From a virus: DNA of 64,000 bases. The DNA lies in IMG/VR virus record IMGVR_UViG_3300025133_000022, positions 128,538-192,537 of that record; one strand, written 5' to 3'. The notes under the pieces were generated by a model that saw only the letters and a list, made by a program, of their open reading frames with translations, had not been told where the DNA came from and did not search any database. This document shows, piece by piece, positions 26,501 through 44,792 of the stretch. Both the position numbers and the translations under genes were made by a program. Each line of letters opens with the position of its first letter. The stretch's first letter is position 1.

Positions 26501-29500
26501 TGGCCAAACTCCCATCGCCCAAAATGCTGAAGTTCTGGCTCCAACATCATGGCTCCTAGGAGCTGGTGAGTAGTCGCAAATGCACGACTGTCGTTAGCCG
26601 CACTGGTTCCCTTTATGGCTTGCTGCAATTCGGTACCAAAGCTTTGAACAAGAATTTCTGCTCTATCTCCACCCTGATTCCAAGTGACGTCTACGACACG
26701 GCCGTTAATCAAAACTTCTAGCAGATCAGGATCATTGCTATAGCCAACTCTTAGCTGTACATTTAGTCCTGGTCGAAGAACCAAAGCGCCAAAAGGTTGG
26801 TCAAGAGCACTTCCCTCATTGACAGAATCTCCACTAAGCTTACTAGCTTCCCCTGGAATATTAATTTTGCTGGAATCTGAAAAATAGTCCAAATCTACAA
26901 CAGCATCACGCTTGGTGCCATCCAGAGTGCCAGCTACGTTTAGTAAACTAACGACAGCATGATCAGCAGGACTTTTTCTATTCTGCTCAACAGTAAAACT
27001 AGTTACGCCATTATAGCTGAAGAAATCATCAAAGTTGAGAAGCCGACTCTCAAACTCATCTTCTTCAACAAAGAAAAGCTTAAAGGTAGGATAAGCCCGA
27101 GACATTCTGCGCTTGCGACCGAAAATATCATTAGCACTATTCAAAGCCAGCTTGTTTAGCGACTCTTTATTGAACCTATGAGAAGGGTCGGATTCTCGCT
27201 CAACAAGTGTACCCCTTAACCTGTCTGCTAAATTCTCAGGAATTTCTTTCTGGTCAAGATAGCCACTACGACTACCAAACATCTGATCTACAGATGCTAC
27301 TGCATCCTGAAGCTCATTATATTGAGCCGCAGTAACACGACGCGGATACTGTACCCCGCCACCCTGACCAAAAGCACCTTCAAAATTACTTAAACGTACA
27401 TCTTCTACATGGACACTGGACAGAGCTTTGGCTTCTTCTATTGAGATTGACAATTCTGGTTTGGTTGAATCCTTCTCAGTCCCCATGCGTGCTTCTTCAG
27501 CTTCACTCTGCAATGCATCAACAGCATTAGTGATATTGCCAATATGCTCTGAAATCGCTTCGGTACTTTCAGGATTGGGATAAAACGGAAACCCTGTTGC
27601 GCCTTTTTTTCCAGTGTCCGTAGCCTCAGCATTGTAATACTGAGGTAAACTAATGCGATCGTCCGTAGCTGGCTCCTGTACGTACCTGTCACCACTAGGC
27701 TCATAGGAACCACCGCTCTCAATCTTCTTCATGGAGTTGTAGCAATTGCTAACAATATCACCCATAACATCTTGAATAGCAGTAATTACAGTTCTGTTGT
27801 GCGCATCTCCATCTTCATACATGTTCCACATATAAAAATCAGGAGGGCAAGCAGCAATATCTCCGTAATACGGATGATGCGGTAAGTCCATATCAGGTAA
27901 TGCGGGAGAGCCCTGAATGCGCGCTCGCTTGTTCACACGACTGAGCCCCTGAAGGCCAAACGCCTTCAGGACGTCATAATCATTAAGCAAATCACAAGCG
28001 TAGCGTGCAAACAAGCTTTTGAAATATTCAATCTTTTTACTTTCTAAACTGGCTTCTGCGTGCCAAATAAATGGTCCTCCAGGAGGCCAAATGCCCTCCT
28101 GCTTATTAAAAAAGAACCAATCCCAAGACGCTCCATCTGGTAGTAAGATAGGAACAGCAATCTGCCCTTTGGGAATGTCAGATGGCTGAGCAATACCGAT
28201 ATCTTGGTTTTCCTTACTAGCCTCACGAATATTGTCGCTTGTAGTACCACGCTCAGTCATAACGTACTTTGGCATATCGAAAAATCTATCAAACTGAAAA
28301 TCACCACAACTTGCAGCTGTTTTCTTAAGCTGCTCAGTCGTACTTGCAAAGACTGGAGAGCCACCCTCTCCAGCAACAGTACCAAGTATATCGCCAAAGA
28401 TAGTGCTACTCACATAGGACTTGAAACGCTCTTCTACAAGATCTCTAACTGGCAATTGCCACATATAATTGTTAGCAATATCAGTTAGAACGTCATCATG
28501 CATCTCAGCCCAAAAATCAGCGTAGATACCACGATCACTATCATTCCATTGGCCAAACTTAGTTTTTAACGCCTTGTCACCACCATTGACAACAGTTGCC
28601 CATATAAAACTTACAGGGCGCTCGACAATAGTGCCAAGAGCACCCCAGCCAACCAAACCACCAGCATAGCCTGCTCCAAAACCTGTCTGTAGTTTTTTCA
28701 AATCAACAGATGTCAAACCGTTCTGCGGATGCCACTGTAGCCAATTTTGATTTTCTACCAAGTGTTCTACAACAGCACCAGTCGCAAGCGACTCTTCTAG
28801 AGGTTTTGTTTGATTAGAAGAACTGGGTCCAGGATATGGATTAACAGCAGCAACAGTAGCTAAGTAGAGCTGATAGCCCTTGAAAAGATTTGGCTGCACA
28901 GGTAGCTCGTAGAGTTCGTCCTGCACAAAATCAATAGTATTCCCGCCTGCCTGCACTGTGCCATAAGCAAGTTGGTCGTCAGACTCAGCAAGAATAGCAC
29001 TAGCAGTCTGAATTGTCTTATGAATCATTGTCCAATAGTCAAGAATCTTCTCCATCGGAACTTTACCAAGAACTTGCGTATCTTGGCTTGCCTGAAGAAG
29101 AGCACTAATGTCAAATTCCTTAGGGGTAATGTTTTCATCCGGAACTGAAGAAGCTGTAGGGGCAGCTACAGGTCTGCCCTCCTTGGCCACTTGGGCGTAA
29201 GCTGCTCTCCAAGCATCGCCTTGATGCCCACCGGCACCACCGCTTTGCGGAACACCACCAAACACCTGGTCTAAGGGAACTGCGTTCAAATTAGAAAAGA
29301 TAGAGGATTCTGGCAAAGATGTGCCAGCACCAACAATATTGCCAATACTGTCTGGGCCATTAGCCAAAGAACTGAAGTCATCGCCAAAAATAATCCAGTC
29401 ATTATCACTCTTGTCTCTGTAAAGAGCCACATTATCATCTTCTACCAAGAGTGGCGATGTGACGTACGACAATTCGAACTGACCAAATTCATCCGACTCT

Positions 29501-32500
29501 TGGCGATATGTGTTAGCACCAGCAAGCTGAGCAATGAGTACTTGCTGAAGTAACTCAGCTGCCTCATCTTTGAAAGCTAATTTGTAAACTGCATTTAAAA
29601 CTTTAGAATATGCAACTTCTAAATCCTCTACTGCAGGAGCTGTACCATTAATAGCCTCACCAACGTAAGGGTTAGTTTCAGACAGTTCAATAGTATGACA
29701 ACTCATGCCAGGATGTCCTTGCACAGTCATACTGTTACTACGAGTAACCATAGCACGCCTAAGGACTTCGATATCTGCAATTACTGGCTCTTCACCAGCT
29801 TCCGTGACGTTGTTGTACGTAGCAATCTGAATGTCATCAGGAGAGAAAGTACCCAAGAGCCTAGTAACAAAACTATCCACAGCGACACACCAACTATCCG
29901 TAATGCCACGAAAGTTACGTGCATTCGCATGCAGCAACCCTCGCATCGCAAGCAGCACTTCAGTCTGCTTGCTGACACCTGCAAGTCTTTGTGTGCCACT
30001 ACCCTCGAAATCCACAGAGCAAAATTCGAAACTGTAAAACGGCTCAATGCTACCCAAATGCTGTTGGGTAGGAAACTCATACCCAAGAATAGGAATATTT
30101 GCCACTATGTGACGAAGACCGCCAGCAACAGCAGTGAGAACAGTAGGGTCAGAATAAAAGCCTTTTTCAAGTTGTTCTTCGTTTCCAGGCCCAACTAAAA
30201 GCTTGTGGTGCTTCCACCACACATTAGTAATCTTGCTGTCACGATCATAATACAGCCAACCGTCTCTCCAAAGATTGTCTAAGATCTGACCAACAGACTG
30301 AAGCTCTTCGTTGCTGATATTGCCTTCTTTTGCTTCTTCTGCAATGTCTTCCTTGACAGTTGTTTGAGTAGGAGTTGTGAAAGAAGGGCTGGCAGTTAGT
30401 TCATAACTTCCAGCAACACTGGTCTCCAAAGGACCACTTAAGTCCACGGGGACCATGCGACTAGAACGTTTCCAATCCTCTTTTAAAGCTGGAGTACCAG
30501 TCCATGGCGGATCAATACCTACTCCAAGATCTTCACTTTCCCAATATTCAAAATGAAGATGAGTTTGGTAATGCCAAACACTACTTCTCTCTCCACTTGG
30601 ATTGTCCCAGAAATTCTGATTAGAAGTTCTGGATATGTACTGATATCCATTAGAGCCAGAGGTCAGATATTCTTTTCTAGCTTCTACTATAGCATTGGCT
30701 TTAAATGCTTCATTCATAGGGCCACTACCACTCATCCAGCCAATGAGTGTTCCGGCAGGAATCTCCTCTGTGGCGTTAAGTGAATTCATTGCGGCTTCAG
30801 AAACACCACCAAGATGCATATACATACTCAGGTTGTTCCCATGAGACATTTGTATATAATTGCCCGCACTAGGAGCTTCGACATAATACCAAGCATTACG
30901 ATACTTGATAGATTTAACAAACGAGCCAACGGGGAACGTTTCCCCAAATTCTCTAGTGACATTCGCTCCTCGAAAATTAACTTCTGGAACGATAGCCTTG
31001 ATGCTGACTTCAAAATCTTCCTGATCGAAAGGCAACGAAGTAAGCTCTGTGTCATTCAAGTACGCAAGTTTCCAACTCCCACCACTAGAAGAATCCGTCA
31101 ATTGAATATGACTGACAGTACCTGCCTCAACAGCATAAATAGGCACTAAGACGTCTGGCTTATTTCGATCACGATCACCTGCACCAATGTCAGTACCCCA
31201 GTGCATACTTCCACCAGTTGGGCGGCCTGCCAAACGAGATCGAGTAGCTGCAGAACGCCAATGGACAGTATCTGTAACGCGCACTTCATCAACAGGCATG
31301 GGTACATCTTCGTTAGAGTAGCCTACTGGTGACACACGAGGACTGCCATCTTTACCGAGAGCGCTACTGAAACGTCTACGTACTTTAACTCTGTCTACAT
31401 GAAAAGTGTCAGTGGGATCAAAACGCAATTCCCAACCATCTACCTCAGTACCACCTGCGGACGGTAGCTTGTCCTTGGCAACACGTAACGTCTCTTTGTG
31501 CGCATCACTAATCATACCGGTCCACTCCGCTGGAAGCCTAACTTCCTTGTACGCAAAGAAGTGAAACAGTGCACCACCATGAACACTGTTCATCTTTGCA
31601 ACAATGCCATTTCTAAGGAGCTTCCATTCGCGATACAACTCTTCAGTACTTGCTGGAGGTCCAGAATGCAAACCAAAGGTATGTCTGTCATTGCGATACA
31701 AAACGGCACTAAACAGCGCTCCCCAAAGAGTGCTGGTTAGAATCTCTTTCTCAACATCAATAGAGAAAGCTTTCATAAGGGCATCTCGTTGCAACAGGTT
31801 GATATACCTAGTATAGATGCGTGATTGCGCTGGACGTTGAACAAATTCTGATTGAGCCATTTTGTCAGGCAAGGGGAGAAGATCAAAAATCTCCCCTTGG
31901 TGAAACTCTTCCATCTGTTCAATAGTCAATTCTTGACGATCTTGATACTGACCTTGAACAGCACTCCAAGAACGGATCTCATTATCAGAATTACCAAGCT
32001 TCGGCAGAATAGTGTGTTTTTGTTTTTTTTGACCAGCCTTCGCATCCCATCCAATAGTGGTTTCAATACCACTGCCTTTTGTATGCGAAGTCTCACCTGT
32101 AACTGGAAGCGTATGCCAATCTTTACGATAGAGCCAATTGTGAACATATGGAAAATAATTAAACCAAGTAAGATCTAATTGCATAATCCATGTGTCGCTG
32201 CTGCCCTGCATGGGCGCAACATTCAAACCAGTCATAGTAAACGCCATGGCCTGGCTGTAGGGCCAGTGTGGCACAATCGTTTCTCTAAGGAAACGATTTT
32301 CAACATAACAGAAAGGACTGTGTCTAAATTCAACAACCAGTCTATGCATATCTAAAACCATAGGACCTGTGAAGGGAATGGTGATGCTTACAGCCACCTG
32401 CCCATGTCCGCTTGGAACTTTGGTTGTCGCGCGCTGACGCAGTGCTCTCCACTGCCAAACCAAATCTTCAATCTGAATATCAATGTTCGTTGGCGGAACT

Positions 32501-32583
32501 ACGAGGTCAATGTCATTGATAACAAAAACATTCTTACGGTATCCGTAAGTCGGCTCGAATTGGTCCATGGTCTTGGTTGGCAT
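23569..32583 (-). CDS. Giant baseplate hub protein (gp27/gpD-like) with M23 metallopeptidase domain (~3004 aa)
   Basis: M23 zinc motifs HWGTD (31189-31203), YMHLG and HLHFE (HLH at 30553-30561). Hub-like segments LRPGLNVQLRVGYS, TIWDVFHEMSLRHPG and YRGEIVILGNPRIRPWD...FEVEQIVHQFSHETGFISEIKP. TGATG overlap at 32583. Confidence 0.75.
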   Translation of the reverse strand: MPTKTMDQFEPTYGYRKNVFVINDIDLVVPPTNIDIQIEDLVWQWRALRQRATTKVPSGHGQVAVSITIPFTGPMVLDMHRLVVEFRHSPFCYVENRFLRETIVPHWPYSQAMAFTMTGLNVAPMQGSSDTWIMQLDLTWFNYFPYVHNWLYRKDWHTLPVTGETSHTKGSGIETTIGWDAKAGQKKQKHTILPKLGNSDNEIRSWSAVQGQYQDRQELTIEQMEEFHQGEIFDLLPLPDKMAQSEFVQRPAQSRIYTRYINLLQRDALMKAFSIDVEKEILTSTLWGALFSAVLYRNDRHTFGLHSGPPASTEELYREWKLLRNGIVAKMNSVHGGALFHFFAYKEVRLPAEWTGMISDAHKETLRVAKDKLPSAGGTEVDGWELRFDPTDTFHVDRVKVRRRFSSALGKDGSPRVSPVGYSNEDVPMPVDEVRVTDTVHWRSAATRSRLAGRPTGGSMHWGTDIGAGDRDRNKPDVLVPIYAVEAGTVSHIQLTDSSSGGSWKLAYLNDTELTSLPFDQEDFEVSIKAIVPEVNFRGANVTREFGETFPVGSFVKSIKYRNAWYYVEAPSAGNYIQMSHGNNLSMYMHLGGVSEAAMNSLNATEEIPAGTLIGWMSGSGPMNEAFKANAIVEARKEYLTSGSNGYQYISRTSNQNFWDNPSGERSSVWHYQTHLHFEYWESEDLGVGIDPPWTGTPALKEDWKRSSRMVPVDLSGPLETSVAGSYELTASPSFTTPTQTTVKEDIAEEAKEGNISNEELQSVGQILDNLWRDGWLYYDRDSKITNVWWKHHKLLVGPGNEEQLEKGFYSDPTVLTAVAGGLRHIVANIPILGYEFPTQQHLGSIEPFYSFEFCSVDFEGSGTQRLAGVSKQTEVLLAMRGLLHANARNFRGITDSWCVAVDSFVTRLLGTFSPDDIQIATYNNVTEAGEEPVIADIEVLRRAMVTRSNSMTVQGHPGMSCHTIELSETNPYVGEAINGTAPAVEDLEVAYSKVLNAVYKLAFKDEAAELLQQVLIAQLAGANTYRQESDEFGQFELSYVTSPLLVEDDNVALYRDKSDNDWIIFGDDFSSLANGPDSIGNIVGAGTSLPESSIFSNLNAVPLDQVFGGVPQSGGAGGHQGDAWRAAYAQVAKEGRPVAAPTASSVPDENITPKEFDISALLQASQDTQVLGKVPMEKILDYWTMIHKTIQTASAILAESDDQLAYGTVQAGGNTIDFVQDELYELPVQPNLFKGYQLYLATVAAVNPYPGPSSSNQTKPLEESLATGAVVEHLVENQNWLQWHPQNGLTSVDLKKLQTGFGAGYAGGLVGWGALGTIVERPVSFIWATVVNGGDKALKTKFGQWNDSDRGIYADFWAEMHDDVLTDIANNYMWQLPVRDLVEERFKSYVSSTIFGDILGTVAGEGGSPVFASTTEQLKKTAASCGDFQFDRFFDMPKYVMTERGTTSDNIREASKENQDIGIAQPSDIPKGQIAVPILLPDGASWDWFFFNKQEGIWPPGGPFIWHAEASLESKKIEYFKSLFARYACDLLNDYDVLKAFGLQGLSRVNKRARIQGSPALPDMDLPHHPYYGDIAACPPDFYMWNMYEDGDAHNRTVITAIQDVMGDIVSNCYNSMKKIESGGSYEPSGDRYVQEPATDDRISLPQYYNAEATDTGKKGATGFPFYPNPESTEAISEHIGNITNAVDALQSEAEEARMGTEKDSTKPELSISIEEAKALSSVHVEDVRLSNFEGAFGQGGGVQYPRRVTAAQYNELQDAVASVDQMFGSRSGYLDQKEIPENLADRLRGTLVERESDPSHRFNKESLNKLALNSANDIFGRKRRMSRAYPTFKLFFVEEDEFESRLLNFDDFFSYNGVTSFTVEQNRKSPADHAVVSLLNVAGTLDGTKRDAVVDLDYFSDSSKINIPGEASKLSGDSVNEGSALDQPFGALVLRPGLNVQLRVGYSNDPDLLEVLINGRVVDVTWNQGGDRAEILVQSFGTELQQAIKGTSAANDSRAFATTHQLLGAMMLEPELQHFGRWEFGQLYQVGEGQDARLDFVDYSRKGFLGAFKATNRVTDWMLNNPIITATLAIGGAAVLGRIPGVGRLLRPAAGLARTGAVATRGVKNFSWVSKWLGTLGVNGPGTAFYRSALTNIVGKRIGVATTVANKVVQADIRAVSRLVKNQQALRGMALRDAGGTAGRALVRESQRIQANAIRRAAVGSIDDAARALAKADAEIANLVLKGQWMSHPMQQIAGQSVGLLRSVGIKPISRVWGGIWYRAPLLVGGVSISALPLAGLDWAFSELYDASVGRIKAYFRQKQVSLFLSPQDDNLFPPHPKDYMEIYDKSWTKVWEDMKMWVVKTGVSAFVTDDELGYQAARWFGNKPALDKRVAPASCSFRLISTTIWDVFHEMSLRHPGWIYAARPYGHAFRYTMFFGVPSQRYWSQPGDNEFVRRANDLNEVLGNSSVDMNEYRRLYGDVVDDGYTSLLLEDFDANLDEEAIVAASVDRNSANDMVTNTVYVNDPATQQSVPVEITTGTVYETDPVDVDKIKSSLSQLTYTPRAMKEYLRALNLRFKPFRRYHSVTSEHDIVWNGLMSSENAVHNAVDVTYFEENAKFGDSPASSAMFKAHAFIPEHDLRVLPLQPSYNVRGYQMAMRYGVGSLLHTMREMYRGEIVILGNPRIRPWDVGILSDSYNDMVGPFEVEQIVHQFSHETGFISEIKPSAMVIANETSSWPVLEAIKVAALAVRDVEDQYEGLGATDPGARFRFLDWVLGFGAGNDSSSLQGALDLGTPHAATEYRKYLEERAAELRPFDPFANPKTGKSDLEEIREIEDELGSVKRGLTQFTGGALGVATGALALKGIPWVFGAAGKTVPKFLRMQSGTAMGVMGILGAGGAVFAGNRLTPSLTWLLGSPILFLQALRGDSIMLVPLMKNGNPIVSGVNLTDPSMIWNNFKGDLGRWVEDTLDGTRDLTDIWRLYGKHAWRRNEHLKRTFDANSDVWNQNKQLYAELTGES

Positions 32584-35500
32584 CAATACTCTCCCATTAG
32601 TCGATCAGTATAAGATCTCGTGATTGGACGTCTAGTGTCATTAATTCTAACTGACCCAGCAGCATTACCTCCAGTCATCGCCCCTACGTACTTCATAGCT
32701 CCGTTGAGCCCGAATCCGTTTGGCAACACACCTTTGATTTGATAACTGCTTGGGCGCGACATATACGCACCACCACTATTGATTGGCCTGTCTATCATAC
32801 CATAATCACTTGACGGCCTGCCAAGACTTTCTGGCGCTATGTGACCTCCACTGTTTTTAAATAAACTTCCTTGAGCAATAGCATTGCTAACTTGAGGAGA
32901 GGTGTACTCTCCGGGTGCTGAAAGAGGAGTGGCAGCATAGCCTGGCGTGCCAATCGCACCCATTGCAAACATACTTGCAGCTGCACCCATTGCGATGGGC
33001 GCAGCCATCCTTTTGTCAAGCTTGTCTATGAGGTTGGTGATTTGCCCAAGCCCTTTAGAAAAACCAGCCATACCATGTTGAGGAGAATCACTAAACGCAG
33101 CCATACCAGCAGTTTCCATATTGGAGCCTGCTAGAGCTTGGATAAACATATTGGGACCAGCAGAAAAAGCATGCGACATAGCCTTAGCAGTGCCAGGCAT
33201 ATTGGTTCCGGCAGCTACAGCAGAGTTGGCCACCTTCAGAGACGCATCTACAAAATTGTCAATATTGACGCTAAGCGTCCTACCCTTCGTAATTTCAGCA
33301 GCCCACTGGCCGGTCCTGCCCTCCCCTACAATATCACCAACTTTAAAGCTGGTGTTCTGGTTATGAAAAATCTTATTCTTTAGAACATTGCGAAGCTCCT
33401 CAGCAGAATCTTGAGAAGGACTGGACATTAGCCGCTCAACGGCTCCACCCACCTCTTCGGCAAGAGGTACAAATACTTTCAGCTTCTTAGCCTTGAGAAG
33501 TACGTTCTCCTCAAGGGCACCAAGGATATCTCGATGCGCACGAATCTGATCAATATTGGCTCCATAGTTGCCAAGAGCCTCGTGCAACCCACGAAGACGA
33601 ACGTCCATCGCACCAGTTTGCTGCGAAATACCCATCTCCTTCATCATGTCTTGCACAATTTTATCATCTAGGCCCCCACCAAGAGTATCTCCATAAGAAA
33701 CCATACCCTTCTTGATAGCAGTACCCACACCGCCTTTAAGCACACGACTTTGAAGCTCCATAGCTAAACGCGCAGGATCCCCGACTTGTGCAGCAAGTCT
33801 CCTTCTCACTATTGCGCTAGTCTTGGGATCAAGCATCATGCTAAGTGCTGTATCACCATCCATATCCATGAATGCTTGAGGCGCAAGTCCAATGTCACCA
33901 GCTGCAGTAAGTACACGAGGCACAATCATGCGACCACCACCCTGCCCACCGGTAAATTGATCAATATTGTCAATCAGAGTGCGAAAAAACTTGCGATTAG
34001 CATCATTGCCTTTGTCACCAGTAGCTGCTGCAATATCGGCGAAGCTTTTAATATCTTTGCGAAAGATACTTTTCATGAACTCTTCACCTCGCATCTGCTT
34101 AAACTGCTGATCGCCAGCAGCATCCAAACCACTAAAAACCTGGAGTTGCGCTCCTTTGATTTTATTAAAAAAAGCATCAGTACCTTGAAGAGCACTAACT
34201 TCTCGTAGATCACGGAACACTTGGGACATAAAAACATTACCTGCAGAAATAAGAGGATGTCGTCCACTCACGCGAATAAGACCGCTGCCAAGCCTTTTGT
34301 TTCCTGCTTTATGTTCCATTCCTGTAAAGAACATGCGAGCACTCTCAGCCAATTGCTTACTGCTAGTGCCACCAGCTTTCTGACCATGAAGTTCGCTTAG
34401 CATCATGGTCGCGTCAGCAAATACAGCAGTGCCACCAGTACTTCTAAAAAGTTGGTTAGCTACACGACCCTGCTGGCGGCTAGTAAAGCCAGCGCCAGTA
34501 GTAAGGTTATAAGAACTAACTCTAGGAGAACTACTGCCCCGAACCTTGCCACGAGCAAGGTTCGCAATACTGGTACTCATAAGATCCAAAGCATTACTGC
34601 GCCAAGTCTTGAGACTTTCACGCAGAGGGTCACCACCTGTAGTAGCATGATCGGCCAAACGCTTTTGCAAACCACTCACAAGCTGACCATACGCAGCACT
34701 GACCTCTTTGCTTTGCCCTCCAGCAATTCGCACACTAGTCCCACTGCCAGCCTCATAGGCTTCCATGCCTGGCATATACATACTGCTAGATCCAAAAACA
34801 TCCTGAACGGCTCTGCCAATGTGCGCAGGAGCGTCACTAAAATCTAAAATGGCTCCTTGCTTCTGAGTACGCAACCAATCTGTCATCTGTCCAGTTGACC
34901 TGCCACCCTCAGTGAAAGCGTCACCAAACTGACTGTACTTGAGGCGCGTAGCACCTCTTTCGGTGAAAGCGTCTACAGCATTACGATGCCCAGTGACACT
35001 GCGCCCCATACCCATCATTTGCTCAGCGAGAGCATAGTGACGACCAAAGCCAATTTTATTAGTATAGATGCCAGCAACTGCGTCAACAGACTGCTCTTTG
35101 CTCATACCTAGCTGAAGCATGCGTTCGTATGCTGTCTGAGCGAATCTGCGTTCAAGACCAACACGCGCAGCACCCCAGTCTCCGGCGGATGGGCCAACTT
35201 GAACCGTGTCAATAAAACTAACAAGTCCGCGTCTCATCGCCGCAAGAGCATCAGCGCTTCCAGCACCAAGTCCACGAACCATCTTCTGAAGTTTCGCCTG
35301 GTCAATTCCGCCTTTACCAACACCTCCGCCCTCTGCCCCATGGTATACGCCAGCAAGCATCATTCCAATATTCTTAGCACCAACACCACGCTGCTGCATT
35401 AATTCAAATGCAGCTTGAGCGTAAATCTGATGTCCCTGCTTGCCTAGCATACCTCCACCAGCATCTGAAAGAGCCTGCGCTCGAGCACGCAATGTTTTGT

Positions 35501-37706
35501 GGTTTACGCCAAACATTTTTGCGGTTCCCGCTATTTGGTGTGTAAAACCAAAAGTACCTTTGCTAAACATGTCACTACTAATGTACGCAGCACCATACTT
35601 CATGTCTCCCAATCCAGAAAGTTCTGAAGCAAGCTCACCCAGCCTTTTGTCTTGTCTGTACAGACGGTCAATACCTGCTTGCCCGATATTCTCCATGTTG
35701 CCTTTAAAGCTAGCGCTAAACATTTTAAGAAAATCCATCTTTCTAATCTGTTGGCCACGAAAATAAATCATGTCTTTCTTGTAACTGATGCCAGTACGAT
35801 CTAAAGCAATATCAAGAGCTTCAGTAGCTGGATCCCGAGGTAAGTACTTTCTGCCGGAACCAGTCTCTCCAACATACAAATTCTGAGCCAATTCTTCTGG
35901 AGTGAATTTACCATTGCCTGCAAGAATGCGTGTCAATGTTTCACTAGCCGCATAAGCGTGTTTCTCTGGATTGAGAACAGAGAATTGAATAGGCTTACTT
36001 ACTCTGTGAGACACTCCAGTGACCCCCATGCCAGAATCACCATAAGACTTACTTAAATGACCAGCATTAGAAAAATCAACAACCATCATCTTGTTTAAAC
36101 CACCAGACGCATGAGAACCCCAACCCTGAGACACTTCACTAATGGCACGGTGTCGAAGCACTCCCGGACTGAGTTTACTCTCTCCAGGGCGAGTAAACTT
36201 ATTTCGAAGACGATCTAAAGAAACATCAGAAGCCTGCCCAACACCACCTAGGTAAGCACCCCCAAACGTACGAAGAGAATCAAGAGAGTAGCTACTTCGA
36301 CCAAGGACTTGCGCTTCACGCGCAGTGATAGGAAGCTGGTGTCTGTCGACAGCAAACTTGCCATACGCACTCTGAAGAGCGCTAAAGCCACTTTTCGCTC
36401 TAAGGCCTAGTACAGATCTACGCTCCTGCCCAAAGCCAGTAACAAGGCGCTTAGCGCCTACAGCACCACCCTCAAAATCACCTCCAGAACCAAGCTGAGC
36501 AATAAAACGCATCGCCTCACCAGAGTCCATTGCTCCAAAAGTATGCCCAAACACTGCATTCGCACCAAGTGCTATTTGTCGACGTATATGTCTTCCGATA
36601 TACCCAGAAGTCATAGCTGCACGATCAACGTGTTGAGTAGCCATGCCCATATTTTCCCTAAACGCCTTCCAGTCAACGCGTCCTTTCGCTGCACGAGAAC
36701 CAATGTCTTGAATAAGATAATCAGAAAAACTAGTCAATGCTCCGCCAGCCCTAAGCTGTCCAACCGTCATGTTTGCAGCATCAAGTCCTTGTTGCCTAAC
36801 AAGCTGGTGTGCGTTTTGAACATTCATGGCATGTTTTGGAGTCGAGTAAAGAGTGTTGAAACTCTGACCACTGCGAAACAATCCATGCTCGTGTAAGGGT
36901 ACGCTAGCTACCCATTGTCCACGATTCAAAATTTGTGCTTGCCTAAACTGCCTGCCGCCTTCAGTAAAAGAGGCAACACGCATTTTGTAATCACCTTGAG
37001 ACAGGTGGGCATTCAGACGCAAAGCCCTTCGTTCCCAAGGTTTGAGAGCTTCTTTAGCTTGCCTCCTGCTAAGTAAGGTTCCAACATCAATAGAATTGTA
37101 AGCAACACCGCCTTTTGGGATTGAAAAATTAGGAGACTGAAGCTGACCGCTGATGTTTCTAAATTCACTTAAATTCTCTTCCCATTTTAAAAGAGTCTCG
37201 GCAGAACCACTATCAAGAAGAGATCTAGTAACTTTCTCGGCAAACTCTTCTACAGAGTTTGGACTAGCCTCACTAAGCAAACGGCTAATCTCTCCTTTCA
37301 GAGAGCTAACGGCAGAAGCATTAAGACCACTAGCAGGATCTTCAAGTGTTACGGAAAGTGTCTGAAGAAGTGCATTGTGTTGCTCTACGGTGCCAATGAT
37401 TTTGCGTAACTCATCAGAATCACCAAGCCCTCTTTTAATTTTATCAACAACTTTGGCTGCACGCTCACTTCTGGCTTGTTGAGACTTTCGAGCTGCAAGG
37501 CCTTTGGCCTTGCCAATAGCCTGAGAAGGCGTAGCTTTAGAAAGAGGGTTGTTTAACGCCTCGTTTCTTTTAAGGTGTCTTTGCCCATGCCAAATACCAA
37601 CAGCTACAGGGCTTAACCCTACGGCAGTCTTAAGTAGCGAAACACCACTTTGAACAGTGGTGTCAGCATCTTCGTGAAACTGGTTAAAGCGATCATTAGT
37701 AGCCAC
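32583..37706 (-). CDS. Putative single-chain two-barrel (DPBB) RNA polymerase at the tape-measure locus; candidate virion RNAP, 1707 aa
   Basis: Ordered motifs: GLNKMMVVDF..YGDSG (beta DPBB first half, D557), IRKMDFLKMFSASFKGNMENI (beta K1065/K1073-like, K661/K668), NLARGKVRGS (beta' NLLGKRVDYS-like), RHP (R1149), AFMDMDGD (D1281/D1283/D1285; nt 33852-33866), TGAMDVRL (bridge-helix-like), LGALEENVLLK (trigger-loop-like). GTG start with GGAG RBS. Confidence 0.72.
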   Translation of the reverse strand: MATNDRFNQFHEDADTTVQSGVSLLKTAVGLSPVAVGIWHGQRHLKRNEALNNPLSKATPSQAIGKAKGLAARKSQQARSERAAKVVDKIKRGLGDSDELRKIIGTVEQHNALLQTLSVTLEDPASGLNASAVSSLKGEISRLLSEASPNSVEEFAEKVTRSLLDSGSAETLLKWEENLSEFRNISGQLQSPNFSIPKGGVAYNSIDVGTLLSRRQAKEALKPWERRALRLNAHLSQGDYKMRVASFTEGGRQFRQAQILNRGQWVASVPLHEHGLFRSGQSFNTLYSTPKHAMNVQNAHQLVRQQGLDAANMTVGQLRAGGALTSFSDYLIQDIGSRAAKGRVDWKAFRENMGMATQHVDRAAMTSGYIGRHIRRQIALGANAVFGHTFGAMDSGEAMRFIAQLGSGGDFEGGAVGAKRLVTGFGQERRSVLGLRAKSGFSALQSAYGKFAVDRHQLPITAREAQVLGRSSYSLDSLRTFGGAYLGGVGQASDVSLDRLRNKFTRPGESKLSPGVLRHRAISEVSQGWGSHASGGLNKMMVVDFSNAGHLSKSYGDSGMGVTGVSHRVSKPIQFSVLNPEKHAYAASETLTRILAGNGKFTPEELAQNLYVGETGSGRKYLPRDPATEALDIALDRTGISYKKDMIYFRGQQIRKMDFLKMFSASFKGNMENIGQAGIDRLYRQDKRLGELASELSGLGDMKYGAAYISSDMFSKGTFGFTHQIAGTAKMFGVNHKTLRARAQALSDAGGGMLGKQGHQIYAQAAFELMQQRGVGAKNIGMMLAGVYHGAEGGGVGKGGIDQAKLQKMVRGLGAGSADALAAMRRGLVSFIDTVQVGPSAGDWGAARVGLERRFAQTAYERMLQLGMSKEQSVDAVAGIYTNKIGFGRHYALAEQMMGMGRSVTGHRNAVDAFTERGATRLKYSQFGDAFTEGGRSTGQMTDWLRTQKQGAILDFSDAPAHIGRAVQDVFGSSSMYMPGMEAYEAGSGTSVRIAGGQSKEVSAAYGQLVSGLQKRLADHATTGGDPLRESLKTWRSNALDLMSTSIANLARGKVRGSSSPRVSSYNLTTGAGFTSRQQGRVANQLFRSTGGTAVFADATMMLSELHGQKAGGTSSKQLAESARMFFTGMEHKAGNKRLGSGLIRVSGRHPLISAGNVFMSQVFRDLREVSALQGTDAFFNKIKGAQLQVFSGLDAAGDQQFKQMRGEEFMKSIFRKDIKSFADIAAATGDKGNDANRKFFRTLIDNIDQFTGGQGGGRMIVPRVLTAAGDIGLAPQAFMDMDGDTALSMMLDPKTSAIVRRRLAAQVGDPARLAMELQSRVLKGGVGTAIKKGMVSYGDTLGGGLDDKIVQDMMKEMGISQQTGAMDVRLRGLHEALGNYGANIDQIRAHRDILGALEENVLLKAKKLKVFVPLAEEVGGAVERLMSSPSQDSAEELRNVLKNKIFHNQNTSFKVGDIVGEGRTGQWAAEITKGRTLSVNIDNFVDASLKVANSAVAAGTNMPGTAKAMSHAFSAGPNMFIQALAGSNMETAGMAAFSDSPQHGMAGFSKGLGQITNLIDKLDKRMAAPIAMGAAASMFAMGAIGTPGYAATPLSAPGEYTSPQVSNAIAQGSLFKNSGGHIAPESLGRPSSDYGMIDRPINSGGAYMSRPSSYQIKGVLPNGFGLNGAMKYVGAMTGGNAAGSVRINDTRRPITRSYTDRLMGEY

Positions 37707-40700
37707 TTAAGTATCTCTCCATTGCTGTGCCAATATCAATGGCACGGTTATCATTGTAATCAACTTGTACAGTACTCATCATACCTTTCCATGGTGCTAC
37801 ATGCCAACTGCCACGACTTCCTGCAGTGCCAGTCATTTGAGTAAGTCCTCTACTCATAGCAGAACCTATCGGAACCCCAGGTTTGTTTTGTTGTAAGAAA
37901 TCTGTACTCCCGTCTAGCATAGGTTGTTGCATGCTTTTCTTGAGCTGTTTTTCCCATAAGCCGTAATCCGACAGCTCTGCACCCATCCTGTCGACATATC
38001 TAACCTGAATATCACTCATGTCGACATCCTCATGCCAACCCACCCAATCTTCGGAAGGCATTGGCCCTTCTAGAGATCCAGCAACACGTGCTTCTTGAGC
38101 AGCTAAATGCGAATCGCTAATAGCGTTATCAGCACCAGCCCAAAGATTCTCATCTCCAGAATCCATTCGGCTCCAAATTGCCTTGTAAAGGTGTTGTTGG
38201 TCGGCGGGAACCATCTCCATAATACGATGACGATCTTTACCAGAAGCATGAGCGAAAGCATTGAAGAATTTTCTTTCACTATCAGGAAGTGTCCAGTACA
38301 TACTTAGAGAGCTCCCTTGAGGATTCACACCAGCACGAGTATTGGCTTGAGCCCAGCGGTACTGTGCTGCTGCACGAGAATCTCCAGAAAGTTCTGCCTG
38401 TTCGCGCAACCTTGCCCATTTTAGAAATTCTAATTTATCAAAGTACTCGTTTGCACTATCAGCCTTGTGTCTCCACAGAGGCTTACCTTCCCATCCCATC
38501 ATATTTAAAGTGCTGTTCATGGCTGGTCGAAACCAATCGCGCCATGGCTTATCCCAAAAAGCCATAGGTGTACCATATAGACGCTCGTACTCATACTGCT
38601 CAATAGCATCTCTGTCACTCATGAGTTTTTGCACGGGACGAAAGCCCATAGGTACGAGATATTCTCCTGGTGCTGTTACCCGACGTGCTGCTCGCTGTCC
38701 CGCAGCCCAAGCAGCTCGGGTTAATCCCGAGCCTGGTAGCCTGATAGCATTCTTGTGTAGTCTGTCATCACTAAATCCACTAACTTGCTCTGAGTGATTG
38801 CGATCCACTGCCTCCATGAAAGCAATTTGCTTCTCATTGTAAGCTCCCTCCATGCGCTGCTTGTACACAGCTTGCTTGTAAAGAGTGTATTCCTGAGAAA
38901 GTGGCGCTACGTCACTAAGGATGGCAAATCTAAATAAGGCGGGGTAAGCCTCTGGATCTACCCCTCGTAGTTCAGGGTGTAAGCCTGCATAGCCTGCACC
39001 TGGCAAGCGTCCTTCTCCCCATTCTATTGAGCGATATGGGTCTCCCCATTTGAACTTGTCTGGCAGCCAGCTAGGCATATTGTTGGCAAGCGGATTGCGA
39101 CGATCTATCTCGCTACGCATTCTAGGAAAGACGCGACGCAAAAATTCATTTGAAAACAATGCACCACCCATGTTCATCTCCCAGAAACGAACACGGCTGC
39201 TAGTCATCAAACTAGCATCTGCCAGCTGTTGGCTGTCAGCCGCCCAAACATCATCTCCAGTTAAGCCCTGCTGGATAACATTCTTAGCCCAGCCAGTCAT
39301 ACCTTCCAGCTCTCTGAATTGGTAAGACAAAAAACTCAATTGATTGGTAGCACTGTAAGGACTTGTCGGCACACCGTGATGAGCTCCCAAAGCTGTGGCT
39401 GGCTCAAAGCGCGACCCTTTGTACACATTTCCATACTCAAGCCCACCATCTTGTCCAGGACGAATCCATTCGCCTGCATGCATAACTCTTGCAGGCTTGA
39501 TTAGCCTGCCAATAGTACTTGAGAGCACACCGCCAATTATTGGCACGTCTGAAAACGCAGCATTACTTATGGGATAAGGTCTATCCCAATACTGCTGTGT
39601 TTCTAATTCATAAGTAAAGTTTTGACGAATCCACTTGCCTAGGGGACTTATCTTGTCCTCATCTGCACCCCAAACACCTTTCTCGCGCACTCTGTTCATC
39701 ATGAGAGAATACTGATGTGGTCTGTAATAGTCTGTTTCACCACCCTCGAATGGAGTGCCACCTGCTTCCCACCACCTACTTGATTTAACGGCAACCATTT
39801 TTCTGCCAGAATAGATGTCACGCAGATCGTCTGCAGTTTCCTTACTGCCTAACAGGCCACCAGTGAGAAGCTGATGTGTGCCAAAAATAGCAGCTCCGAC
39901 ACTTGCCCACTTGCCCAGCCGGCCTGCTGAACTGAATCCCATATCGCCAATTCGACGACGCAAAGCTTTGTCTGCACCGACATCTGCACCAAAGAAACTA
40001 TAGTAGGCTTGAGTACCAAAACCTTTGGCTTCCTTCTTAAGGCGAGCAACCAGGTTGGGGGTGTCTCCATACTTGGCGCTAATGTCGCGCAACCTACGCT
40101 CTAGCGCTTCGTTCATAGGGTTGCCTTGCCTGTAGGTGTCCAGCTGCTCTTCAGCCCTGTAGAATGCAGTATTGAGGTCTTGCATCATCTCTAAACGCTT
40201 GTTGTCATACACACTGGTGCGCAAGTGTTTCATCAAATCGCGTCGTTGCCGAAACCCTTCATGAGGTAGGTTGTTAGCCAAACCGCTAACATTTTTATAA
40301 TAGAGATCTCGCACATTGCTGTTTGCCAATTGTACCTGACGGACTTTGTCTGCCTGTAAATCTAATTTCAAGCGCCTAGGTCCAGCAGACTCAAGCATCG
40401 TCTGGGCTAGACTCATATTGCGACCAGGCAAACTAACACTGGTGGCCATAATGCCACCAGTTGCTAACAGCGCACCAGTTTCCCAATCGGTACTTCCAGG
40501 AGCGAAACCCTCAAGGGTCCGACGCAAATAATTGAAAGGGTTCAGTGCATTGGCACGAGCGACATCCATGCTGACAGCACCGGTTGCAACCCCTTGCATA
40601 ACGCCTTGATCAAACCCAGGAAGAATCATTTGGCCAAAGAAACTTGCAGCTGCAGCAAACATAGCCGTGCGCGGCTGCTTGGCCATCTTGCCAACAGCAT

Positions 40701-41796
40701 ACCCGACACCGGCGCTTACCGCCCCACTAGCAAGAATTTGCCCAGGCATTCCATATTGTCTTCGTACCCAATCTGCTTGGCTTGCCGCAAGTACAGTACT
40801 TCCAGCAAGTGCAGCCCTGCCTCCAAAACGCATAAACATTGAGGAAGCTGGACCTGGACGAACGCCAGGAGATACACCCAAAATACTTTTGAATGCCTTT
40901 CCACCAGACTCACCAAGGAACTGATCTGCCACACCTGAGACAAGACGATTAAATCTACCCATTTCAAATGCAGCCACACCTCGAATCATCGTAGTACGTC
41001 GAGCCAAATCACTTAAGTCTTTAAGGTCTCCAACCGAACTAGGAACTGGCATGAAGCTAGCTTGTTTTCTAACCCACTTTCCAGCAGCATCTTGCTTTGA
41101 GCCGAGAAGTACTTCTTTTTCATTGAAAGCATCATCAGCATACATATCTGCAGCAGCAAACATGCCAGTAGCAATTCTATTGACACCGCGCTCTTTAGTG
41201 AGTGGGTTGACAACTTCATGACTCATAGCCTGCAAAGATATGCTGTCACTTAATAATTTTCTATTGCCTCCAAGCCAATGCCCAGTACTTTCGTCTAGTC
41301 TTCCACCTAGCACGCTGTACAAGTTCCCACTGGAGCCACGTGGCTCAAACACCATGGCGTCAGCCAAGTGCTGAGAAGCTCCAAGCATGCCTTCAGTGAT
41401 TCCAGCTGCTGTCATGCCGGCACGATCAAGCCCAGTGGCGTACTTAAGCCAATTGTAAGTACTACTAGACTCAAGAGCTTCACGTCCCCAGACAGTAACG
41501 CCTTCCGTGCTGCCAGAACCAACCTTATACCCCATGGATGTAAATGGACTTAAGATCTCAGGAACACGAAAAGTATTTAAAATTTGGAACGGGCTCAGAT
41601 TCCCGCTAAGCCGAGAACGAGCCGCAATGTAGTCAATTGGACGCCGGCCATTCGACATAGGCTTAGTAGCTGCATACATAGCACCCGCACCAGCTGCAAC
41701 CGCAACCGCAAGCTTTGTCATCTGACTGCCAGCACTATTGTAAGGTTCTGTGGAGTCACCATTCCAGGTGACCCCACCATAAGACTTAAGGGCCAT
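37696..41796 (-). CDS. Tape measure/ejection protein candidate, 1366 aa
   Basis: First large gene after the tail chaperones; Ala/Gly-rich with several hydrophobic helices (about 39845-40820) and Trp/Tyr-studded helical segments. Confidence 0.6.
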   Translation of the reverse strand: MALKSYGGVTWNGDSTEPYNSAGSQMTKLAVAVAAGAGAMYAATKPMSNGRRPIDYIAARSRLSGNLSPFQILNTFRVPEILSPFTSMGYKVGSGSTEGVTVWGREALESSSTYNWLKYATGLDRAGMTAAGITEGMLGASQHLADAMVFEPRGSSGNLYSVLGGRLDESTGHWLGGNRKLLSDSISLQAMSHEVVNPLTKERGVNRIATGMFAAADMYADDAFNEKEVLLGSKQDAAGKWVRKQASFMPVPSSVGDLKDLSDLARRTTMIRGVAAFEMGRFNRLVSGVADQFLGESGGKAFKSILGVSPGVRPGPASSMFMRFGGRAALAGSTVLAASQADWVRRQYGMPGQILASGAVSAGVGYAVGKMAKQPRTAMFAAAASFFGQMILPGFDQGVMQGVATGAVSMDVARANALNPFNYLRRTLEGFAPGSTDWETGALLATGGIMATSVSLPGRNMSLAQTMLESAGPRRLKLDLQADKVRQVQLANSNVRDLYYKNVSGLANNLPHEGFRQRRDLMKHLRTSVYDNKRLEMMQDLNTAFYRAEEQLDTYRQGNPMNEALERRLRDISAKYGDTPNLVARLKKEAKGFGTQAYYSFFGADVGADKALRRRIGDMGFSSAGRLGKWASVGAAIFGTHQLLTGGLLGSKETADDLRDIYSGRKMVAVKSSRWWEAGGTPFEGGETDYYRPHQYSLMMNRVREKGVWGADEDKISPLGKWIRQNFTYELETQQYWDRPYPISNAAFSDVPIIGGVLSSTIGRLIKPARVMHAGEWIRPGQDGGLEYGNVYKGSRFEPATALGAHHGVPTSPYSATNQLSFLSYQFRELEGMTGWAKNVIQQGLTGDDVWAADSQQLADASLMTSSRVRFWEMNMGGALFSNEFLRRVFPRMRSEIDRRNPLANNMPSWLPDKFKWGDPYRSIEWGEGRLPGAGYAGLHPELRGVDPEAYPALFRFAILSDVAPLSQEYTLYKQAVYKQRMEGAYNEKQIAFMEAVDRNHSEQVSGFSDDRLHKNAIRLPGSGLTRAAWAAGQRAARRVTAPGEYLVPMGFRPVQKLMSDRDAIEQYEYERLYGTPMAFWDKPWRDWFRPAMNSTLNMMGWEGKPLWRHKADSANEYFDKLEFLKWARLREQAELSGDSRAAAQYRWAQANTRAGVNPQGSSLSMYWTLPDSERKFFNAFAHASGKDRHRIMEMVPADQQHLYKAIWSRMDSGDENLWAGADNAISDSHLAAQEARVAGSLEGPMPSEDWVGWHEDVDMSDIQVRYVDRMGAELSDYGLWEKQLKKSMQQPMLDGSTDFLQQNKPGVPIGSAMSRGLTQMTGTAGSRGSWHVAPWKGMMSTVQVDYNDNRAIDIGTAMERYLSGY

Positions 41797-42524
41797 TAGC
41801 GCCGCCTGTGTGGTCTTCTATTTGATTTGGCCTCGCTATCCATACTTTTCTGAATTTGTCTTAATTGAATATCTTTCAACTTCTTAGTTTGACGAGACTT
41901 CTTTTCCAACTCTGCGGGATGCATATCTAGCGCATGCTTTCTATCACCAAATTCATCTCGAAGTTCCATATTCTCGCGCTTCATCGCATCCACACTAGTA
42001 GACTTCTTCGTTTGAGCTGCTGCTTCTTCTGCGCTCATAATCTTACTGGTGTCAAGAGGTTGATACTCTCCTCTGTTTTGAAGGACAGCTTCAGCCTCTA
42101 CAAAGGTTCTCATTAGCTTTCTACGTGTCCAGCGCTCCAGTTCGTCAGGCTTGTAAGAAAAAGCCATAAGAACTACACGTTTAACAACCTCAAGAACCCC
42201 TGACTGATTGTATTGCGACCTAGCTGCCTCGATTTCATCACGCTCCTCTCCAGAACAATCTCCTGACAAGTACATAATCAAACGACCAATACTCATAAAG
42301 ATACCTGCAGGAAGATTGCCATTGATGGCACGAGAATCACCTACATAGCAACGGTCAAACACCTTGTCCCACAATTGATACTCATGCCATACACCTTGGT
42401 CGCGAAGCGTGCTGAACACTCGGTATTCTTTCATCGTGAGTAAACGCCACGTGAATGACTGTCCCTCTGGAAGGGACGTCATGTACATGTCATCGCTGTC
42501 AACAAGAAGGTCAATGTCCAGCAT
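41796..42524 (-). CDS. Tail assembly chaperone-like protein 2, 242 aa
   Basis: Between tube genes and tape measure; FTWRLLTMKEY pattern; own AAGGAGG RBS. Confidence 0.6.
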   Translation of the reverse strand: MLDIDLLVDSDDMYMTSLPEGQSFTWRLLTMKEYRVFSTLRDQGVWHEYQLWDKVFDRCYVGDSRAINGNLPAGIFMSIGRLIMYLSGDCSGEERDEIEAARSQYNQSGVLEVVKRVVLMAFSYKPDELERWTRRKLMRTFVEAEAVLQNRGEYQPLDTSKIMSAEEAAAQTKKSTSVDAMKRENMELRDEFGDRKHALDMHPAELEKKSRQTKKLKDIQLRQIQKSMDSEAKSNRRPHRRR

Positions 42525-42533
42525 ACAACCTCC

Positions 42534-43265
42534 TTAGAGCTGAGCAGTAATTACCATAGCTTGTTGTGGGGTGAGATGATAGCTGTGCAACATGACACTA
42601 CCGTAAAGAGTTGGGATCACACCACTGCGACTATTATAAAAGAATTCAATTTTCAGTTTGGGCCACAGTATGCATTGTTTGAGCACCTGCTCCATCATAA
42701 ATTCTTCAGGATCTTTGTTCATGCCCTCTAGCTGTGCTTGCTTTGCCATAGCTTGTTGGATTTTCTGGAATGCAGCACGACGGAGATAGGTGAAAACATA
42801 AACATCACCACGACCCAGAGCCACAACTTGTACTCCATCCTGACCAAAGTCTCGTTTCCATCGAGCAATAGCAGCTTCAGATGGGGCACCCTTCTGATCA
42901 AAAAGCATTTGCCGAACATGATCTTCAATAGCTATTTCTTCAGCAGGCGGGTCTTGTTCAGGAGCACGCTCAGCTTCTTGAGCAGCACGTTCAGCGGCAG
43001 CTGCACGCTGAATTGCAAGTTTCTCATCCATCTCTCTGTTAATACGATCGATTTCGTCTTCCACTTCTTGCTCCTCCATCTCGGTTCTTTCAGGAACCTC
43101 GCCTGCAAGCTTAATGCCCTTGGCTTCGGCTTGCTCAACGATTTCTTCGTTAAGGTCATCTATGTTTGCCAGAATCTGATCTGGAGTTGGTCCTGCTGTC
43201 TTTAAGCGACTAATCGCTCTAGCGTCTAGAGAAGGGGGATTTCCCCTAATGCGTCTACCTGCCAT
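42534..43265 (-). CDS. Tail assembly chaperone-like protein 1, 243 aa
   Basis: Acidic coiled-coil N-half; C-half IARWKRDFG..VYVFTYLRRAAF..EQVLKQCILWP; position after the tube genes. Confidence 0.6.
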   Translation of the reverse strand: MAGRRIRGNPPSLDARAISRLKTAGPTPDQILANIDDLNEEIVEQAEAKGIKLAGEVPERTEMEEQEVEDEIDRINREMDEKLAIQRAAAAERAAQEAERAPEQDPPAEEIAIEDHVRQMLFDQKGAPSEAAIARWKRDFGQDGVQVVALGRGDVYVFTYLRRAAFQKIQQAMAKQAQLEGMNKDPEEFMMEQVLKQCILWPKLKIEFFYNSRSGVIPTLYGSVMLHSYHLTPQQAMVITAQL

Positions 43266-43277: not shown

Positions 43278-43946
43278 TTAAAAGCTAATTGGTGAATTTG
43301 GGTCCTCGGGGTCAACGGGAAGACCCGAAGGACGGTTTCTAAGCGAGAATACATCTCGCGCAAAGAAGTCGTAAGCTTCTACGACAACATCTTCGTCAAT
43401 TCTAATCGCCTTTGACCTTCCTGTGAAGTGCACATCTACAAGAAGTACTGCAGTTTTACCCGCAGGACGCCCTGCGCTTTGCTGACCAAAAGCAATAGTT
43501 AAATCTACACCACCTGAAATATCAAATGGATTATGTGAATTAACAATCGGACTGAAAGTATTTTGTGTAAGTCCTGAGTTCCAATATTGAGATTTCATAC
43601 TCTCTACGAATGCTTGAGACTGTGCATAGTCACTCACCATTCCGGTTAAATCTGCACCAACTCCTGAAACGGGATCAGAGGCAACATCATCTGCTGCAGA
43701 ACCGCCAGTGCTCAATTCAATAGCTCTGAAAAGGTAATCTTGATGAACGTAATTAACCAGAAGGGTTCCAGATACAATTACCTGACCAGCAGCTACAGCA
43801 TCGTAATGCCTACTGCTGTAGCCATAGATTGGCATCTTGCTATCTCTTGCTTCGTAGCTAATACCAGCAGCTTCTAAAATTGGCATACTATTAACAGAAA
43901 CAATAACATTTGCTCCACAAAAATATTCAAAACCAAATGCTGCCAT
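43278..43946 (-). CDS. Tail tube-like protein 3 (probable tube initiator/baseplate-proximal), 222 aa
   Basis: EYFCGANV, GISYEARDSKMPIYGYSSRHYDAVAAGQVIVSGTL and EAYDFFARD parallel the major tube motifs. Confidence 0.7.
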   Translation of the reverse strand: MAAFGFEYFCGANVIVSVNSMPILEAAGISYEARDSKMPIYGYSSRHYDAVAAGQVIVSGTLLVNYVHQDYLFRAIELSTGGSAADDVASDPVSGVGADLTGMVSDYAQSQAFVESMKSQYWNSGLTQNTFSPIVNSHNPFDISGGVDLTIAFGQQSAGRPAGKTAVLLVDVHFTGRSKAIRIDEDVVVEAYDFFARDVFSLRNRPSGLPVDPEDPNSPISF

Positions 43947-44737: not shown

Positions 44738-44751
44738 ATAGTGATCTCCTT

Positions 44752-44792
44752 AAAAAGAAAGTGGCCAGGCCTCCCCGATGAGACCTGACCAC
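44752..44792 (-). terminator. Intrinsic (rho-independent) terminator after the major tail tube gene
   Basis: Minus-strand RNA GUGGUCAGGUCUC-AUCGGG-GAGGCCUGGCCAC (13-bp stem with two G-U pairs) followed by UUUCUUUUU, then AAGGAG of the next gene. Confidence 0.8.

Follow-up and report, generated by a model that had tools for sequence, protein, structure and literature searches.

The window analysed here is a stretch of 64,000 nucleotides (positions 128,538 to 192,537 of the IMG/VR virus record IMGVR_UViG_3300025133_000022). It represents the structural arm of a 192.5-kb single-contig phage genome, which has a terminal overlap of ~535 bases, carries 24 tRNAs, and was found as DNA in three marine sequencing runs, with no RNA run listed. 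On its minus strand, an open reading frame (ORF) that overlaps the stop of the upstream gene and the start of the downstream gene encodes a protein of 1707 residues. An earlier note on this DNA had read the protein as a single-chain RNA polymerase (RNAP) with two double-psi beta barrels (DPBB), which occupies the tape-measure slot of a contractile-tail operon and is packaged into the virion. Re-reading of the sequence located the ORF and every motif that had been quoted, among them K661-G669 (35700-35726), G1053-S1058 (34533-34550), R1149-P1151 (34254-34262), and D1281-D1285 (33852-33866). The gene and its predicted parts are listed below with window coordinates; residue 1 of the structural model corresponds to protein residue 400.

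32583-37706 (-): 1707-residue single-chain two-barrel RNAP, candidate virion RNAP or tape-measure fusion; GTG start; slot of 0305phi8-36 gp146 and ME3 gp36
36510-37706 (-): residues 1-399, N-terminal region preceding the modelled core; a stretch close to its start is moderately hydrophobic
35160-36509 (-): residues 400-849, beta-like half with the lysine-donating barrel (DPBB-B)
35703-35726 (-): K661 and K668, invariant lysine pair, candidate equivalents of two conserved beta lysines
33207-34991 (-): residues 906-1500, beta'-like half (clamp-like helices, catalytic barrel, bridge helix, trigger loop)
33831-34541 (-): residues ~1056-1292, catalytic double-psi barrel (DPBB-A) with insertions
34254-34262 (-): R1149-x-P1151 motif
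33852-33866 (-): DxDGD metal-binding loop D1281/D1283/D1285, in the model a loop between helix and strand
33483-33671 (-): residues ~1346-1408, a long helix (candidate bridge helix; K1356, E1357, G1365, D1368) and the next helix (candidate trigger loop; E1400, K1405, K1407)
32583-33044 (-): residues 1555-1707, conserved C-terminal piece; contains a single hydrophobic helix (1567-1585), ends in a conserved motif, and may serve in tail assembly or as a membrane anchor

Conservation and predicted fold of the 1707-residue protein

Homologues of the protein were retrieved by word search (13) and with a profile of residues 400-1500 (112 clusters at 50% identity), and conservation was counted over 89 homologues of at least 1300 residues, whose identity to the query goes down to 19%. 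Every one of these has DxDxD at the equivalent place, in 36 cases with phenylalanine as the second letter as in the cellular DFDGD type; judged by composition, DxDGD would be expected by chance ~0.02 times in a protein of this length. Besides D1281, D1283, and D1285, the columns invariant in 89/89 include Q466, G559, K661, K668, P1151, and E1400, and R1149 and K1407 (88/89 each) as well as G1365 (87/89) are nearly so. The catalytic residues stay invariant while mean identity among the homologues drops to ~20–30%. The DxDGD, R-x-P, and lysine-pair motifs to which the earlier note had pointed are therefore conserved throughout the family, and its motif-by-motif pairing with cellular RNAPs held as far as the order of the domains is concerned. 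It failed for D557, which had been equated with D814 of the Escherichia coli beta subunit: as aspartate occurs at that column in 12/89 homologues and G559 alone is invariant there, this equivalence was dropped. Another quoted motif, the fourth, lies where it had been placed, but is only moderately conserved. Both barrels are contained in one open frame, and the homologues are single ORFs of 1640–2480 residues; 74 of the 85 with at least 1600 residues fall between 1640 and 1790.

An AlphaFold2 model of residues 400-1500, calculated from a 50-sequence alignment, has an alpha/beta structure with ~18% strand and high confidence (predicted local distance difference test score, pLDDT, 91.9; predicted template modelling score, pTM, 0.90). 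In an exhaustive structural search (VIA), ranks 1–17 were all occupied by two-barrel RNAPs. Beta/Rpb2-type subunits align to model residues 1-450 (Z 8.4–10.8, up to 12.0 in a further search) and beta'/Rpb1-type subunits to model residues 507-1101 (Z 6.5–8.5), whereas single-chain enzymes span both halves, namely QDE-1 (Z 9.3, 409 residues, root-mean-square deviation 4.5), RDR2 (Z 8.8), and P74-26 gp62 (Z 8.8, 324 residues). P23-45 gp96 was found at rank 19 (Z 6.7, 318 residues aligned). Free DPBB domains (7dww, 7dvc, 7dbo, CDC48-N) align to model residues 657-893, the stretch that holds R-x-P and the aspartate triad, and in Foldseek against the PDB the first 40 matches listed are all RNAP beta-type chains (E 0.01–0.08). 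K661 and K668 lie on strands within the half that aligns to beta/Rpb2 subunits, and the whole-chain alignments to QDE-1, gp62, and gp96 are consistent with the aspartate triad and the lysine pair facing each other where the barrels meet. The candidate bridge helix (~1346-1381) and the next helix, which holds the invariant E1400, were so named from their order after DPBB-A rather than from residue-level alignment; beta'-type chains align through model residue 1101.

Structure prediction and fold search thus yielded the DPBB fold and not an all-helical tape measure. That the protein is a single-chain two-barrel RNAP, with the beta-like half preceding the beta'-like half as the earlier note had stated, is strongly supported by conservation, the predicted model, and domain-level structural alignments, and the fold together with the retained residues suggests that it is very probably catalytically active. 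Sequence comparison places it in no described family: it has no match in Pfam (E 0.1) or PHROG (E 0.01), none among PDB sequences either as a single protein or with profiles of 14 and 50 sequences, and none by tblastn in GenBank phage records, and no relative was detected in the GTDB genomes scanned. An Atlas feature search returned unnamed viral clusters, plus one weak match to a tape-measure cluster (0.89, rank 17). The ~110 clusters (50% identity) would thus constitute a sequence-orphan RNAP family missed by Pfam, PHROG, and PDB sequence searches.

The tail operon and other occupants of the slot

The surrounding genes agree with the contractile-tail operon of the earlier note, as a PHROG tail sheath, tube paralogues, a hub, and a baseplate wedge are encoded:

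51822-53126 (-): major capsid protein (tblastn E 6e-34 to 4e-25), which groups the phage with 0305phi8-36, ME3, MTATph1, KLEB27-3, Edson, and WH1
45517-47904 (-): tail sheath, 795 residues (PHROG 16991, E 2e-32)
43278-45497 (-): three tail-tube paralogues (224, 263, and 222 residues), matching 0305phi8-36 gp140-142 and the KLEB27-3 tube genes
41796-43265 (-): two genes (243 and 242 residues) at the position of the two-gene tail chaperone pair gp143/gp144; the 243-residue protein matches ME3 gp33 (E 5e-9)
37696-41796 (-): 1366-residue homologue of 0305phi8-36 gp145 and ME3 gp35 (virion protein), alternative tape-measure candidate
23569-32586 (-): 3005-residue baseplate hub homologue, gp147-like, with an M23 peptidase domain in homologues

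The order sheath, three tubes, two chaperone-position genes, gp145 homologue, RNAP gene, and hub is the same in all metagenomic loci checked, including the distant P0105, and in the cultured phages. In 0305phi8-36 the slot is occupied by gp146, which is annotated as a virion protein by mass spectrometry; the virion mass spectrometry and the tail-length argument reportedly go back to Thomas et al. in 2007. Its assignment as the tape measure was made mainly from tail length, and only its last ~60 residues could be aligned to the prophage counterpart (PMC2147016).

Four cultured phages encode same-slot proteins, ME3 gp36 (L017:21173-25984), Edson 0920 (L019:19160-26707), WH1 gp095 (L020:18275-25822), and KLEB27-3 gp034 (L021:18100-25404), in which R-x-P is followed by DxDxD at 76–79% of the length, compared with 75% in the 1707-residue protein. 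They are annotated as hypothetical or structural, the “structural protein” labels of WH1 and KLEB27-3 being unverified. ME3 gp36, recognised from the organism and from two fragments of 801 and 802 residues, is among the best BFVD matches of the model (E 8e-6), and an unnamed 1258-residue half, which fits WH1 gp095 by length only, also matches (E 1e-7). Profile comparison of the 1707-residue family with ME3 gp36 and the other same-slot proteins was not significant; the proposed kinship draws on position, motifs, and these structure matches.

The C-terminus of the 1707-residue family has a weak match to the last part of gp146 (domain E 0.009, 14 proteins compared), and the C-termini of gp146, the Edson, WH1, and KLEB27-3 proteins, and MTATph1 CDS31 match one another. 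In gp146 (L016:37624-45237) and in MTATph1 CDS27 (L018:30512-37868), exonuclease-like motifs take the place of DxDxD; the MTATph1 slot gene appears to be split by a transposase, its shared C-terminal piece residing in CDS31. The conserved end of the slot proteins might therefore be a tail-loading end that carries exchangeable cargo. At the start of the structural arm, at 2658-5609 (-) of the genome, a 983-residue protein combines an N-terminal exonuclease-like motif with a staphylococcal-nuclease domain (Pfam SNase, E 1e-16); it is conserved in relatives and may be a second ejected enzyme.

Second predicted RNA polymerase, putative pre-early block, and possible roles

A second predicted RNAP of 1090 residues is encoded outside the window at genome position 11957-15229 (+). 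It has an invariant DxDGD in 21 homologues, no Pfam or PHROG match, and no sequence similarity to the 1707-residue enzyme, and its profile found nothing in five cultured relatives. Two of its homologues, P0124 and P0127, have longest contigs equal in length to those of P0002 and P0006. Its model (pLDDT 86) matches RDR2 (Z 16.5), P74-26 gp62 (15.4), QDE-1 (15.4), gp96 (10.8), and gp66 (6vr4; 9.3), which makes it a candidate non-virion RNAP of the gp64/QDE-1 type. The gene is preceded by a block of small genes that starts where the direction of transcription switches (genome ~7.5–12 kb) and contains an intergenic cassette composed of a GC hairpin, a pyrimidine tract, TATGG, a second hairpin, and a ribosome-binding site. 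The cassette core occurs in seven copies, all on the plus strand at genome 7592-11803, and nowhere else in the 192 kb. The same cassette lies upstream of the second RNAP in three other genomes, whose second RNAPs are 38–66% identical, and the stem sequences differ yet still pair. The cassette blocks of the four genomes are:

L013:7560-11830 (+), this genome
L022:3500-9900
L023:5370-9860
L024:5860-9430

Judged by its form, the cassette would more likely be a terminator or a processing site than a promoter. An identical 19-base near-palindrome is present at genome positions 15227, 33528, and 67266, one copy directly following the stop of the second RNAP. A 400-residue EF-Tu homologue recognised by sequence is encoded at genome 31366-32568 (+), beside the 24-tRNA cluster, which includes a tRNA with CTA anticodon at 67188-67260.

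With a second RNAP and a cassette-marked gene block, the genome mirrors the two-polymerase scheme of P23-45, and the 1707-residue protein is probably a virion-borne starter enzyme. As a late product expressed along with the tail genes, it would become part of the virion. Its most likely place is the interior of the tail tube, either as the tape measure itself or next to it, and the conserved C-terminal piece could hold it there. Upon sheath contraction it would be ejected into the host and fold, perhaps anchored to the membrane by its C-terminal hydrophobic helix, and would transcribe the small pre-early genes at genome 7.5–12 kb that lead into the second RNAP gene. The second, non-virion RNAP could then take over early or middle transcription, by analogy to gp96 and gp64 of P23-45. 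We favour packaging and injection because of the position in a late structural operon, the virion protein gp146 in the same slot, and the second RNAP with its marked upstream block, and assign a probability of roughly 0.7 to the explanation as a whole, that is, a virion-borne, tail-delivered starter RNAP that transcribes the pre-early block. Several points weigh against it. The Z-scores are middling (6.5–12) and no Foldseek match in the PDB falls under E 0.001; the RNAP fold was accepted nonetheless because class, order along the chain, and invariant residues agree. The family varies little in length and has a compact folded core, in contrast to a typical ruler. The tie between the enzyme and the cassette is circumstantial. 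Furthermore, gp146, the sole slot occupant with stated mass-spectrometry evidence, has no DxDxD, so that virion status transfers to the RNAP only by position and the weak C-terminal match.

Other roles have to be weighed against this explanation. An ordinary helical tape measure with chance motifs would fit the position, the richness in glycine and alanine, the weak Atlas match, and the missing sequence family, but it is ruled out with high confidence by the 89/89 invariance of the aspartate triad and lysine pair, the confident globular alpha/beta model, and top structural matches that comprise RNAPs only. Since the fold alone is silent on when or where the enzyme works, it might also be a non-virion RNAP, expressed late for late genes or replication priming, which merely happens to be located in the tail operon. 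This is quite unlikely, as the gene has a fixed place between virion genes throughout the lineage with overlapping start and stop codons, its conserved hydrophobic C-terminal piece recurs in slot proteins that are not RNAPs, the early arm already encodes another RNAP, which lacks such termini, and a late RNAP encoded within the late operon would be circular. Also unlikely is a virion-borne enzyme that serves mainly for something other than gene expression, such as drawing the DNA into the cell through transcription or synthesising primers or other RNAs. In its favour, virion RNAPs that are fused to large proteins have been proposed to couple DNA entry to transcription (PMC10770324), RNA-templated enzymes such as QDE-1 and RDR2 have the same fold, and the acidic residue on the beta side is not conserved; however, the marked gene block leading to the second RNAP is what a starter polymerase would need, and a role in DNA entry or priming does not exclude a starter role.

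A closer decision concerns the ruler, the only point in which a stand-alone virion RNAP differs from the starter enzyme proposed above. The earlier note had called the RNAP a stand-alone gene product, which has become doubtful because the slot is that of the assigned tape measure of 0305phi8-36 and the conserved hydrophobic helix and tail at the end of the protein weakly resemble the end of gp146. A fusion of tape measure and RNAP, as in P23-45 gp96, is at least as likely, and the odds that the RNAP chain also serves as the tape measure appear even. In the stand-alone alternative, the 1366-residue protein upstream would be the tape measure and the RNAP a separate cargo loaded into the tail or head through its conserved C-terminal tag. 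The 1366-residue gene comes immediately after the chaperone pair, where a tape measure is usually encoded; the 1707-residue protein contains no long ruler region, its RNAP core accounts for ~1100 of the residues, and the family has a narrow length range; in 0305phi8-36 and MTATph1 the slot holds unrelated cargo with exonuclease-like motifs and shares the C-terminus alone; and, as weak evidence, a search for longer versions found no fused form of 2989–5000 residues. Conversely, the published ruler assignment of the gp146 slot is based on a tail-length correlation in 0305phi8-36, the RNAP domain of P23-45 is part of a full-length tape measure in virions, and the 1366-residue protein is well conserved (50–67% in relatives), unlike fast-evolving rulers, and has no tape-measure match in Pfam or PHROG, the Atlas feature search giving nothing usable. 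This alternative is therefore a tenable one that falls somewhat short of even odds.

Comparison with known RNA polymerases

No description of such an enzyme in contractile-tailed phages was found in the literature searched, which misses most subscription journals. In a survey of jumbo phages the YonO-like gp99 is the only RNAP named for 0305phi8-36 (PMC7824862), and the RNAP survey table of PMC10770324, searched by name, contains none of ME3, WH1, and 0305phi8-36. Within this literature, P23-45-like Thermus siphophages are the only phages for which tail-associated virion RNAPs are described, a design that would here be extended to contractile-tailed phages. As an evenly balanced proposition, the 0305phi8-36/ME3 lineage may pass a whole single-chain RNAP along the tail tube, either as the tape measure or together with it, the C-terminal piece acting as a loading tag for exchangeable cargo, which would be an RNAP in the 1707-residue family, ME3, WH1, Edson, and KLEB27-3 and an exonuclease-like protein in 0305phi8-36 and MTATph1. 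If true, tail-delivered RNAPs would be a widespread, unrecognised strategy of myoviruses, and the question arises how a globular enzyme of 120 kDa is stored in and passed through a contractile tail. The idea is testable, as cultured ME3, WH1, Edson, and KLEB27-3 carry the unannotated same-slot DxDxD proteins, and the genome described here offers a full testable circuit of virion enzyme, marked pre-early block, and second RNAP.

Further candidates were encountered in other phages. Microcystis phage Ma-LMM01 encodes two proteins with GDxDGD on the minus strand, gp064 (L027:13812-18833) and gp080 (L027:27701-38389). The former has 1673 residues with R-x-P upstream of the motif and adjoins the early cluster gp054-gp063 (PMC5780444). 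BFVD fragments that fit, by length, Ma-LMM01 gp080 and a MaMV-DC gp064-sized protein match the model (E 8e-5 and 2e-5, respectively), and this cultured cyanophage, whose transcription is attributed to the host RNAP, may thus encode two RNAPs. Acinetobacter phage ME3 has a second RNAP-like gene at L037:4114-8849 (-), which is split into parts of 798 and ~375 residues (DxDGD in the latter) flanking a 254-residue endonuclease-like ORF, probably an intron; the 798-residue part matches the model in BFVD (E 5e-6). The best BFVD match is A0A8S5SD80, a “minor tail protein” of Siphoviridae sp. ctnpt50 (E 5.5e-8). A different protein of that phage is RdRP-like and matches the second RNAP, so that a two-polymerase arrangement may exist there as well.

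The closest functional parallel is P23-45, in which the tape-measure-fused virion RNAP gp96 transcribes a pre-early block that includes the non-virion RNAP gp64 and has its own promoter and terminator motifs (PMC10770324, Chaban et al., 2024). Common to gp96/gp64 (PDB 8h2m/8h2n, 8f5m) and the phage studied here are a single-chain two-barrel RNAP with DxDGD encoded at the tape-measure locus, another single-chain RNAP encoded in the early region, and a conserved motif confined to the surrounding gene block, expression timing being inferred in our case; in structure, gp96 and P74-26 gp62 match the model over ~320 residues. However, P23-45 is a siphophage with a long tail instead of a contractile one, and gp96 comprises 5002 residues with a long ruler region, whereas the 1707-residue protein is mostly RNAP and has no sequence similarity to gp96 in protein and profile searches. 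Moreover, the beta-like half fits cellular and poxviral beta subunits (Z 10–12) better than gp96, and helices that align with beta' chains occur in the model both between the two barrels and beyond the trigger loop, while gp96 is described as clamp-less.

Phage phi14:2 is a short-tailed phage, and its gp66 lies outside any contractile-tail operon. Like the 1707-residue protein, this crAss-like gp66 (6vr4) is a large single-chain two-barrel RNAP, and it is delivered from the virion, but it is not among the 50 structural matches listed for the 1707-residue model and shows no sequence match; it does match the second RNAP in structure. YonO, 0305phi8-36 gp99, QDE-1, and RDR2 (PMC7824862, PMC2147016) also contain both barrels in one chain, and QDE-1 and RDR2 align along the whole model. 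YonO and gp99 are not described as tail-operon proteins, however, and the 1707-residue protein has no Pfam RdRP match (E 0.1); of the two RNAPs of this genome, the second resembles the group more closely (Z 15–16.5). Like phiKZ and AR9, the phage is a myovirus of jumbo size, and as in these two (PMC13282480) a virion and a non-virion RNAP would make its early transcription independent of the host, but the enzymes of phiKZ and AR9 are multi-subunit, with split beta and beta' chains, and packed in the head, in contrast to one chain from the tail operon. From 0305phi8-36 gp146, with which it shares the slot between gp145 homologue and hub and a weakly similar C-terminal piece, the protein differs by its cargo, as gp146 has an exonuclease-like motif in place of DxDxD. 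By analogy, the 1707-residue RNAP may work like P23-45 gp96, while in sequence it is a member of neither the gp96, the YonO/RdRP, nor the gp66 family.

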